From assembly GCA_017559955.1 (NCBI GenBank), contig JAFYPQ010000048.1, forward strand, positions 6,450 through 70,449: 64,000 nucleotides of DNA. Reading direction: 5' to 3'. The translations under genes and the position numbers were made by a program. Positions 45,912 to 47,700 of this stretch are shown here, in pieces. This stretch comes from Bacteroidales bacterium. Lineage in GTDB: Bacteria; Bacteroidota; Bacteroidia; Bacteroidales; G3-4614. How positions within the stretch are numbered: position 1 is the first letter of the stretch; every line of letters starts with the position of its first letter. The notes below the pieces were generated by a model. It made no database searches. It saw only the letters and a list, made by a program, of their open reading frames with translations, and had not been told where the DNA came from.

Positions 45912-45947
45912 AAAAAATGAACGAGAAAATTCTCGTTCATTTTTTTT
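45912..45947. terminator. Bidirectional rho-independent terminator between the kinase gene and dnaX
   Basis: Perfect 10-bp stem atgaacgaga / tctcgttcat with loop aaat, flanked by A5 and T7. The T-run overlaps the dnaX stop codon by 2 nt. Confidence 0.8.
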
Positions 45948-47700
45948 ACATTATCTCCAAATCAAACTCTTTATATAAAGTTACTATATTAGGATTTTTG
46001 CCCACCATATAGTTTAATTTGTCGAGAGGTGAAAATATTGTTTTTCTCGCTACCGGAGCCAATTCTACGACTTCCATATCGATATAGCTATTATTCAACA
46101 CCTTTCGCAAATAAGGTAATAATGAATCTCGTCTATCTTTTAATCGTTGGTGCTGATCGGCATTTGTTACCTGAACCCTGAATTTATAGTTATCTTTCAA
46201 TTCAATAGAGCAACTCTTCATCGTACTTACCAATATCGTTTCTGTTGGGATGGTTGCTGCATACTCTAACCACGCTCTACGCAACTGTTCCAAAGTAAAT
46301 CGATTTGAACACTCCTCGACAGATTGCTCTTTTGATAGCTCCTGTACCTCCGGCTTTTGCGATTGTAGTATCGATATTGTGGCCACCTGTTTAGCCGGTG
46401 CTTTAAAGTTATTTGTTATCGGACGTATCTTTACCTCCTCTGCTTTATTAACTTTAATTTGCGATGTTCTGTTTGGTAATACACTCGCCTCTGCTTTTAT
46501 CTGAGGCTGTTTTGGAGTTTCCGATAGCGAAGTGTTAGGAAGAGCTATTGATTCAAGTTTATACTCTTCCCACCAATAAAGTTCTTCTACTTGGTCAGAT
46601 TTTTTTTTTTGATTGAGCTGACTTATTTTTATAAGTGATAGCTCAACCAACAAACGCTTATTACTGCTTACCTTGTAATTAAAGTCGCACGTACTTGATA
46701 TATCTATCGCCCTATATAAAAAGTCATTTGAGCATTTGGCTGCCTGTTCGGCATATTTCTTTGAGACACTTTCTCCCACCTCTAACAACGGAAGGGTTAC
46801 AGGGTCTTTACATACCAACAAGTCTCGTAAGTGGTTGCTTAAACCCGATATGAAATATTGAGCTTCAAATCCATTTCTCAATATCTCGTCGAATATCATC
46901 AATGCTCCAGATACATTTCCCTCTATGAATGCATCAGTCAATCTGAAATAGTAGTCATAATCTAAAAGATTAAGATTTGCCACTACACTTTTATAGGTAA
47001 TGTTACCTCCCGAGTATGCCGACATTTGATCGAATACCGAAAGAGCATCTCTCATTCCTCCATCACTCTTTTGTGCTATTACCGACAATGCCTCCTCTTC
47101 ATATGCAATACCTTCGCTTTCGGCAACATATTTAAGGTGCTCTACGGTATCTGATATTGATATACGTTGAAAGTCATATATTTGGCAACGAGACAAAATA
47201 GTTGGAAGTATTTTATGCTTCTCGGTCGTTGCCAATATAAATAATGCATGTTGTGGAGGTTCTTCAAGGGTTTTCAAAAATGCATTAAACGCCGCAGGAG
47301 AGAGCATATGAACCTCATCAATTATAAATACTTTGTATTTGCCCAATTGGGGTGGTATGCGAACCTGATCTATTAATTGACGAATATCCTCTACAGAGTT
47401 GTTTGAAGCAGCATCTAATTCGTGAATATTGTACGAACGCCCTTCGTTAAACGATTGACAAGATTCGCAAGAGTTACATGCTTCGCCTTCGGGAGTTGGA
47501 TTGCTACAATTTATTGATTTTGCAAAAATTCTGGCACAAGTAGTTTTTCCTACACCCCTTGGACCGCAAAACAGATAGGCATGAGCAAGTTTATTTGATT
47601 GAATGGCATTTTTAAGTGTTTGGGTAAGCGAACGTTGCCCCACAACAGAGATAAATGTCGAGGGACGATATTTGCGTGCCGATACTATATAATTTTCCAT
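45946..47700 (-). CDS. dnaX: DNA polymerase III subunit tau (gamma/tau), DnaX
   Basis: 584 aa. ARKYRPSTF, GPRGVGKTT Walker A, Zn module C..C..C, DEVHML and SRC motifs. Confidence 0.95.
   Translation of the reverse strand: MENYIVSARKYRPSTFISVVGQRSLTQTLKNAIQSNKLAHAYLFCGPRGVGKTTCARIFAKSINCSNPTPEGEACNSCESCQSFNEGRSYNIHELDAASNNSVEDIRQLIDQVRIPPQLGKYKVFIIDEVHMLSPAAFNAFLKTLEEPPQHALFILATTEKHKILPTILSRCQIYDFQRISISDTVEHLKYVAESEGIAYEEEALSVIAQKSDGGMRDALSVFDQMSAYSGGNITYKSVVANLNLLDYDYYFRLTDAFIEGNVSGALMIFDEILRNGFEAQYFISGLSNHLRDLLVCKDPVTLPLLEVGESVSKKYAEQAAKCSNDFLYRAIDISSTCDFNYKVSSNKRLLVELSLIKISQLNQKKKSDQVEELYWWEEYKLESIALPNTSLSETPKQPQIKAEASVLPNRTSQIKVNKAEEVKIRPITNNFKAPAKQVATISILQSQKPEVQELSKEQSVEECSNRFTLEQLRRAWLEYAATIPTETILVSTMKSCSIELKDNYKFRVQVTNADQHQRLKDRRDSLLPYLRKVLNNSYIDMEVVELAPVARKTIFSPLDKLNYMVGKNPNIVTLYKEFDLEIM
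46600..46610 (-). other. A11 homopolymer / A_AAA_AAA slippery heptamer inside dnaX (candidate recoding site)
   Basis: T11 on the plus strand. The coding strand reads CAA AAA AAA AAA TCT GAC CAA GTA G (Q364-K-K-K-S368). The -1 frame gives ATC TGA and the +1 frame gives CTG ACC AAG TAG. Confidence 0.5.

Follow-up and report, generated by a model that had tools for sequence, protein, structure and literature searches.

A putative transcriptional slippage site, adjoined by a conserved 5' hairpin, in the dnaX gene of an uncultured Bacteroidales lineage

In Escherichia coli, the dnaX gene gives both full-length tau and a shorter product, gamma, by -1 ribosomal frameshifting at the heptamer A_AAA_AAG, a shift which involves a Shine-Dalgarno (SD)-like element and a 3' stem-loop, and for which Rfam lists a DnaX frameshifting element. 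Full-length tau is an essential protein of E. coli, and its C-terminal part there binds the helicase and the polymerase. Here we describe a dnaX gene from a Bacteroidales bacterium, found in a stretch of 64,000 nucleotides (nt) of contig JAFYPQ010000048.1 (assembly GCA_017559955.1, positions 6,450 to 70,449 of the forward strand; this whole stretch is referred to below as the window), in which an uninterrupted run of eleven A's (A11) lies where the region encoding clamp-loader domain III ends. We propose that this run is probably a selected recoding site, at which slippage of RNA polymerase, of the type described in Thermus, would allow one dnaX gene to specify two clamp-loader subunits.

Several systems bear on this proposal. 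The dnaX gene of Thermus thermophilus undergoes transcriptional slippage on a run of nine A's (A9) (Larsen et al. 2000, as described in PMC1088944 and PMC5009743), and insertions predominate in this process (PMC5009743). Genes of a second type, in which dnaX is split over two open reading frames (ORFs) and recoding is predicted at an A-run, have been reported for Flavobacterium johnsoniae, F. psychrophilum, Cytophaga hutchinsonii, Capnocytophaga ochracea, Chlorobi and Coraliomargarita (Antonov et al. 2013, PMC3711429, including Supplementary Fig. S3); the run is A10 in most of them and shorter in a few (PMC3711429). A single-nucleotide change can swap which of the two dnaX products needs the shift (2016 review, PMC5009743). 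In Caulobacter crescentus, gamma is the result of partial proteolysis of tau (PMC5009743; bioRxiv 10.1101/2022.11.10.516041). Lastly, in the insertion sequence (IS) IS630 of Roseiflexus, a stem-loop in the nascent RNA, located 5' of the slippage motif, stimulates transcriptional slippage (Penno et al. 2015, as reviewed in PMC5009743), and is thought to do so by melting the upstream end of the RNA:DNA hybrid, which favours forward realignment (PMC5009743). Whether the short gamma matters outside E. coli is an old question, and the main argument that it does has been its repeated independent invention, through frameshifting, slippage and proteolysis.

The A11 tract and its conservation

The tract lies in an ORF of 584 amino acids (aa; 45946-47700, minus strand) which is dnaX. 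This ORF matches the NCBIfam equivalog PRK14971 with 820 bits, the cut-off being 685, and TIGR02397 (dnaX_nterm) with 453 bits. Clamp-loader domains I-III are all present, as seen from the Pfam domains DNA_pol3_delta2, DNAX_ATPase_lid and DNA_pol3_gamma3, with the domain III match stopping at residue 367. Over residues 3-302 the protein aligns colinearly with E. coli DnaX, shifted by a single residue, and structures of E. coli DnaX are matched with E = 4e-70. The zero frame of this coding sequence specifies full-length tau.

On the minus strand the gene reads ctc aat CAA AAA AAA AAA TCT GAC CAA GTA G, that is L N Q364 K K K S368. The original prediction had pointed to an uninterrupted, in-phase A11 containing the heptamer A_AAA_AAA, and this was borne out when the sequence was re-read. 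The frame is identical on four independent metagenome contigs, all with an identical protein, and the length of the run is therefore no read error. The tract itself (C AA AAA AAA AAA, codons Q364 to K367; 46600-46610, minus strand), which we propose as a site of RNA polymerase realignment given its sequence and its conservation in the clade, appears on the plus strand as T11 and is the longest homopolymer of the window. The next longest are two T9 runs, both intergenic, and other runs within long ORFs have at most 8 nt.

Past the run, the zero frame remains open for 217 codons, the -1 frame closes after one codon and the +1 frame closes after four. The -1 frame stop, TGA following ATC (46595-46597, minus strand), would be reached through one extra A or through a -1 ribosomal shift, giving a gamma of 368 aa which ends in ...LNQKKKI, a product that is encoded directly by a sister strain with A12 (see below). 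The +1 frame stop, TAG in CTG ACC AAG TAG (46587-46589, minus strand), would be reached through one A fewer or two extra, giving a gamma' of 370-371 aa which ends in ...QKKNLTK or ...QKKKNLTK; the context of this stop, ...CTG ACC AAR TAG, is kept in the clade. Closure of both alternative frames just past the run had also been noted originally, and both stops were found as described.

The site aligns with approximately residues 365-370 of E. coli DnaX, at the end of domain III, and the crystallised gamma constructs of the clamp loader (1xxi and 1jr3), with 368-373 aa, stop at this same point. Natural E. coli gamma has 431 aa (PDB chain 8giy_B), its final residue being 430/431. The truncated product was originally described as retaining domains I-III and losing the tau C-terminus, which holds, and as ending where gamma ends in E. 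coli, which does not, as E. coli gamma continues for about 60 residues more. Slipped products would lack the tau-only part of the protein (residues 368-584; 45946-46599, minus strand), which consists of a linker and a conserved C-terminal domain and is homologous to the out-of-frame downstream ORFs of the two-ORF relatives considered below. The domain (residues ~435-584; 45946-46400, minus strand) carries the precomputed Pfam assignment DUF8439 and closes with a conserved K-E/F-F-x-L-D/E motif, common to distant Bacteroidota tau proteins; it is named only as a domain of unknown function (DUF), and presumably corresponds to the polymerase-binding domain V. An ORF of 84 aa which runs antisense within dnaX (46250-46504, plus strand) is probably spurious.

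Conservation of the run was assessed in the DNA of eight lineages of an uncultured Bacteroidales group, whose DnaX proteins are 59-100% identical to that of the window. All eight lineages keep the run, with codon position and phase unchanged, as A11 in seven and as A10 followed by G in one (L179, 59% identity), the only lineage with the AAG-ending version of the heptamer (A_AAA_AAG). Two of the Lys columns at the run are AAA throughout, the third is AAA in 7/8 lineages, and the Gln/Glu codon before them has A as its last base throughout. Elsewhere in the gene, Lys is invariant in 15 other columns, and only one of these has AAA in every lineage; in no column of invariant Gln (10 columns) or invariant Glu (12 columns) do all lineages use CAA or GAA, respectively. 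Uniform codons at the run, in a gene whose synonymous sites are saturated elsewhere, indicate purifying selection on the nucleotides and not on the amino acids, and from these alignments we conclude that the A11 run is selected and did not arise by chance. Furthermore, both frames other than that of tau stop within 1-10 codons in every run-bearing lineage, despite differing downstream sequence. This closure ranks at about the 1-14% percentile of each lineage's own gene, with a combined p = 2.7e-6 (Fisher) over 12 lineages. A comparison of orthologs had been suggested as a check on the original prediction, and it came out in its favour, as the run and both off-frame stops are conserved in the clade despite AAA/AAG variation elsewhere in the gene.

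For the distribution of the run across Bacteroidota, we scanned one genome per species with peptide patterns unrelated to the site and used the 80 dnaX loci listed, among which the window's own clade is not represented, the best match being 57% identical. In each gene we took the longest A-run of the 40 codons that follow the final helix of domain III. Its length was A9-A11 in 12 of the 80 listed species and A7-8 in 2, and did not exceed A6 in the other 66, so that the distribution of run lengths across the listed species is bimodal. The 12 long runs are located 9-24 codons past the last helix of domain III, and across the 80 listed dnaX genes 12 of the 13 runs of at least A9 are found at this one spot. 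Carriers include Parabacteroides and other Tannerellaceae (A9-A10), Labilibaculum, Prolixibacteraceae, Mariniphaga and one Saprospiraceae metagenome-assembled genome (MAG). In the isolate genome of Parabacteroides distasonis, the site reads GAT AAA AAA AAA GCG TTA ATT GAG (A9). A scan of metagenomes also gave 80 loci, mostly of the Prevotella type; because one of its two patterns contained KKK, this set is biased and frequencies were taken from the genome set only.

Two further features were seen at or near this position. The dnaX gene of a Tannerellaceae MAG (L014) has two A9 runs, at residues 371 and 411, the second with an immediate -1 frame stop; this second run, 40 codons downstream, may be a further recoding site giving a longer gamma. 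Run-less dnaX genes of the Prevotella/Bacteroides type (L086-L165 and L001-L080, for example L090 and L096) have a basic linker motif, G-R-S/K-P-K/R-R-L-K-S-L-F-K, about 15-30 codons after the domain III helix, which might be the mark of another way to make or anchor a short DnaX.

Frame-flipped relatives and the hairpin 5' of the run

Among relatives of the window, the tau ORF was found in all three frames, and run lengths of 9, 10, 11 and 12 occur. At four loci of Prolixibacteraceae/Mariniphaga (L042, L048, L051 and L056), with A10 or A11, the zero frame ends at the run or shortly past it, and an ORF of 202-238 codons follows in the -1 frame. The C-terminal motif KF.LDFE is present in this ORF in 4/4 cases, and its similarity to the C-terminus of the window's tau is significant by BLASTP in L048 and L051. 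By sequence, these four genes are of the two-ORF dnaX type.

A different arrangement was found in the sister species of the window (P0020, 78% identity), which has A11 in most contigs and A12 in a distinct haplotype (L082:3591-3602, L083 and L084). The A12 haplotype is identical in three samples (ERZ27317805, ERZ27317802 and ERZ28593768) and differs from A11 strains by 18-24 single-nucleotide polymorphisms (SNPs) per 1650 nt. Its zero frame leads to ...QKKKI-stop, which is exactly the predicted gamma of 368 aa (P0038), and the tau ORF, 217 codons long, continues unbroken in the +1 frame, where it departs from A11 strains at 5-9 synonymous and 2 non-synonymous positions. A -1 ribosomal shift in the A12 strain would run into a stop after four codons and leave the tau ORF unreachable, so that with this layout tau could be made only by the loss of one A, the gain of two A's, or a +1/-2 ribosomal event.

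In the strain of the window itself, a contig of 2.5 kb (L085:1549-1562, corresponding to 46590-46610 of the window) has one SNP and a 10-nt deletion (ATCTGACCAA), which yields cA10 GTAG, so that the DNA frame gives gamma and tau moves to the -1 frame, the arrangement seen in Flavobacterium and Cytophaga. This deletion could be a real variant or an assembly artefact. A protein of 368 aa (P0066) was also considered as a possible frameshift allele and rejected, as it is a contig-end fragment labelled partial.

Given that tau is essential in E. coli, the existence of frame-flipped genotypes suggests that slippage at the run can provide enough of it. The conserved run and frame closure, together with these relatives, which would need a slip in order to make tau, lend support to the original proposal of a tau/gamma recoding site.

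Directly 5' of the run lies a conserved RNA hairpin (46609-46650, minus strand), which we propose as a slippage stimulator on the evidence of folding, covariation and RNAalifold. Its outer stem, UUGGUUGAGCU/AGCUCAAUCAA, includes the first two A's of the run, and its inner stem is ACUUAU/AUAAGU. The stretch of 121 nt which contains the hairpin, the run and the downstream stems (46540-46660) has a folding energy of -31.5 kcal/mol (z = -4.5 versus shuffles), and for the 50 nt up to the second A of the run, where the hairpin is the sole predicted structure, the value is -17.4 kcal/mol. In the alignment of the eight clade lineages, pairing holds in 91% of cells, compared with 22-44% in slid controls. 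Compensatory changes, on both sides, are found in five pairs of the hairpin and were matched by 0/500 shuffles, and RNAalifold applied to the clade independently gave the same hairpin. At the homologous positions of 138 run-less dnaX genes a mean of 9.5 out of 17 pairs can form, and in no case at least 14, compared with 15-17 in the core clade; this weak pairing argues that the hairpin is no by-product of the conserved protein sequence LVEL...QL.

Other single-ORF lineages (L037, L086/L099, L100/L105, L177 and L005) have a hairpin of their own which ends 1-4 nt from the run, in a comparison across lineages where the pairing constraint was not visibly enforced and which is to be read only as a window minimum free energy (MFE) comparison. 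Hairpins abutting the run were seen in single-ORF A10-A11 alleles and not in the two-ORF alleles that need an inserted A (L042, L048, L051 and L056), in what is a small sample. Such a split by allele type would fit a hairpin favouring forward realignment, that is, deletions. It is from the likeness to Roseiflexus IS630 that we infer a role of the hairpin in stimulating slippage. We also considered the hairpin and the run as a transcription terminator, which was rejected: a terminator scan called it on neither strand, A's and not T's follow the hairpin, and the site lies 700 nt inside the gene.

Transcriptional slippage and alternative explanations

In the mechanism that we propose, the all-rA:dT hybrid formed on the T11 template would realign within RNA polymerase, giving mRNAs with A10, A11, A12, A13 and so on. 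Messages with A11 or A14 would encode full-length tau, of 584 or 585 aa respectively. Those with A12 would end at ATC-TGA as the 368-aa gamma, while A10 and A13 messages would both end at the TAG stop, the former with 370 aa (...QKKNLTK) and the latter with 371 aa (...QKKKNLTK). All of these short products would be a minimal gamma, with domains I-III only. The nascent-RNA hairpin, which ends in the first two A's of the run, would probably promote realignment by shortening the upstream end of the hybrid. That slippage takes place at RNA polymerase, how efficient it is and what the hairpin contributes are inferred from sequence comparison. Realignment of RNA polymerase gives both insertions and deletions, and the varied run lengths, the presence of tau in three frames and the closure of both off-frames are in keeping with such a process.

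Signals of the E. coli type were searched for around the run. A scan of 46300-46900 against Rfam at E <= 10 returned chance matches only and no DnaX frameshift element, the upstream sequence AUAAGUCAGCUCAAUC contains no SD-like (GGAGG-like) element, and neither folding of the downstream sequence nor RNAalifold gave a stem starting 5-9 nt past the heptamer. A weak stem, UCU.ACCAA / UUGGU.GGA (46568-46599, minus strand), is predicted from the first base after the run; with its spacer of 0-3 nt, its AU-rich pairing and only slight covariation, it is probably incidental. A stronger 3' stem, GGGAAGAGU/GCUCUUCC, begins 28 nt downstream, and folding of the 80 nt that follow the run gave z = -2.2. Both stems were considered as E. 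coli-like stimulators and rejected for their spacing and weakness. A tRNA scan for the tRNA-Lys repertoire found no tRNA genes in the window.

These results bear on an explanation by programmed -1 ribosomal frameshifting as in E. coli, whereby two tRNA-Lys would slip on A_AAA_AAA and decode ATC before reaching TGA, from an mRNA faithful to the DNA. The heptamer is in phase, a -1 stop is found 1-2 codons past the run throughout the clade, lineage L179 carries the E. coli shift site A_AAA_AAG itself, and a -1 shift could serve all five relatives with tau in the -1 frame (L042, L048, L051, L056 and L085). Nevertheless, we regard this explanation as unlikely, given that the site comes without an Rfam match, an SD-like stimulator or a well-spaced 3' stem. 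The conserved structure sits on the 5' side of the run, and structure on that side attenuates rather than stimulates -1 shifting. The conserved closure of the +1 frame would be useless under pure -1 shifting, and in the A12 strain tau would require the frame to change by +1 or -2. Moreover, A_AAA_AAA is far less prone to shifting than A_AAA_AAG in E. coli (review PMC5009743). Sliding of the ribosome on the poly(A) of the Lys codons, or mixed +1/-2 excursions, for which a refolding 5' hairpin may push the ribosome forward, could reach both off-frames and would fit the two closed frames as well as the A12 strain. Sliding of this kind along consecutive AAA codons has been documented in E. coli (PMC4363877). 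It is known mainly for lowered protein output and not for defined product ratios. Runs as short as A9 occur at the same site in Parabacteroides, and transcriptional slippage on A9 has been demonstrated for Thermus dnaX, which makes for a simpler reading; we consider sliding to be highly unlikely.

Two explanations dispense with recoding altogether. The run could be a hypermutable contingency tract, subject only to phase variation at the level of DNA, with A10, A11 and A12 alleles arising as mutants of replication slippage, and alleles with the A10 deletion, A11 and A12 are indeed present among close strains. However, the A12 majority genotype, found in three samples, and the two-ORF families would then be left without tau, which is essential in E. 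coli, even though the tau ORF is intact and homologous in all such genotypes. As there is also no obvious gain from switching off an essential replication subunit, we attach very little probability to this explanation. Finally, the run could have no function, a KKK linker spelling A11 by chance in an AT-rich genome where off-frame stops are common anyway. The window has 37% GC (guanine plus cytosine), AAA makes up 75% of its Lys codons and CAA 80% of its Gln codons, so that AAA-AAA-AAA is not rare a priori, and the chance in this genome that both off-frames close within 4 codons is ~10%. Nevertheless, the other KKK tripeptides in the window's long ORFs (at least 200 aa) avoid the AAA-only spelling, all seven being interrupted by AAG, and the genome appears to avoid long A-runs inside genes despite its codon usage. 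A run without function is also at odds with the persistence of the run beyond synonymous saturation, the bimodal lengths across species, the concentration of 12 out of 13 long runs at one spot, the combined probability of off-frame closure and the existence of frame-flipped relatives. This is the least probable of the alternatives, and is strongly disfavoured.

Some observations weigh against transcriptional slippage at a selected A11 site, or restrict its reach. No run was found in the Bacteroidaceae, Prevotellaceae and Coprobacter-like genomes examined, which implies that gamma made by this route is dispensable, or otherwise replaced, in much of the order. The run-less Bacteroidaceae and Prevotellaceae might, by analogy with Caulobacter, obtain gamma through proteolysis. 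Most Parabacteroides, the two-ORF Prolixibacteraceae and the Saprospiraceae locus have no hairpin or an unremarkable one, so that the hairpin is no general requirement. The A12 and deletion variants are known from metagenome assemblies, the deletion from a single contig of 2.5 kb, and long A-runs are hypermutable in DNA, which alone could yield such variants. An in-phase A_AAA_AAA with a -1 stop one codon further on would serve ribosomal frameshifting equally well, and L179 has the canonical shift site. A literature search found no expression data for Bacteroidota dnaX, and the support is comparative.

Weighing these points, we still consider slippage of RNA polymerase at the A11 run to be the probable explanation, as it is favoured by the frame flips in an essential gene together with the lack of stimulators of the E. 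coli type. A more far-reaching idea, which we offer tentatively and think somewhat less likely to be right than wrong, is that decoding of dnaX in this clade barely depends on the frame of the DNA, with the covarying hairpin at A10-A12 driving RNA polymerase slippage with such efficiency that strains are viable whether tau lies in the 0, +1 or -1 frame of their DNA. If true, this would be a natural polymorphism, in which the DNA frame spells tau in one strain and gamma in another. It would also be the first case of a chromosomal housekeeping gene with transcriptional slippage stimulated by a stem-loop, so far shown only for an IS element.

Significance and comparison with known systems

With this locus, gut Bacteroidales join the lineages in which dnaX has a selected A-run site, among them the culturable and genetically tractable Parabacteroides distasonis. 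That closely related strains can swap the product spelled by the DNA frame is strong natural evidence of slippage efficient enough for an essential protein. The conserved 5' hairpin suggests a connection, open to experimental test, between programmed slippage of cellular genes and the way in which intrinsic terminators work. There is also a consequence for annotation, as two-ORF or A12 alleles in MAGs will be called truncated or pseudogenised dnaX unless recoding is recognised.

The dnaX gene of the window resembles that of Thermus in having a sense A-run of at least 9 nt past the clamp-loader domains, tau encoded in a single ORF, and stops soon after the run in both off-frames, so that any change of length which is not a multiple of three would lead to gamma. 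The predominance of insertions in Thermus agrees with the two-ORF alleles, which mostly need one extra A. In contrast to the Thermus run, which is A9 and is described as lying 'seven-eighths' of the way in (PMC1088944), that of the window is A11 and lies at the end of domain III, at residues 364-367 of 584. It is also adjoined by a conserved 5' hairpin, and it is known from sequence, whereas slippage in Thermus is known from experiment.

With the two-ORF class of Antonov et al. (2013) the locus shares its phylum, as four of the species in that class belong to Bacteroidota, and the layout of that class recurs in the relatives L042, L048, L051, L056 and L085. In that class, the DNA frame spells gamma and tau is reached by a -1 shift or an extra A. 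The window does not fit this two-ORF layout of the Fibrobacteres-Chlorobi-Bacteroidetes (FCB) group, as its DNA frame, the zero frame, spells tau. A third layout, not listed in PMC3711429, is that of the A12 sister strain, whose tau lies in the +1 frame.

As in E. coli dnaX, the short product would lack the tau C-terminus and the -1 stop lies one codon past the shift. Unlike in E. coli, there is no SD-like element, spaced 3' stem-loop or Rfam match in the window, the final codon of the heptamer is AAA and not AAG, and gamma would stop about 60 residues earlier relative to the domains. Caulobacter likewise has two forms of DnaX from one gene, but these arise post-translationally and without a slippery tract. 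The element that the hairpin most recalls is Roseiflexus IS630, where a stem-loop also lies immediately 5' of the slippage motif, with the geometry of an intrinsic terminator without the U-tract. In IS630, however, the motif is T5C5, the outcome is a deletion of a single base and the gene encodes a transposase, whereas here the motif is A11, the gene is an essential chromosomal replication gene and the dependence on the hairpin is only predicted.

Our literature search returned nothing on recoding of dnaX in Bacteroidales or on a single-ORF A-run allele in Bacteroidota, and nothing on a +1-frame dnaX allele or a hairpin at a dnaX slippage site. Recoding of dnaX at an A-run is already known from Thermus and has been predicted for Flavobacterium, Cytophaga and Chlorobi; the additions made by this locus are the 5' hairpin and the flips of frame between strains.

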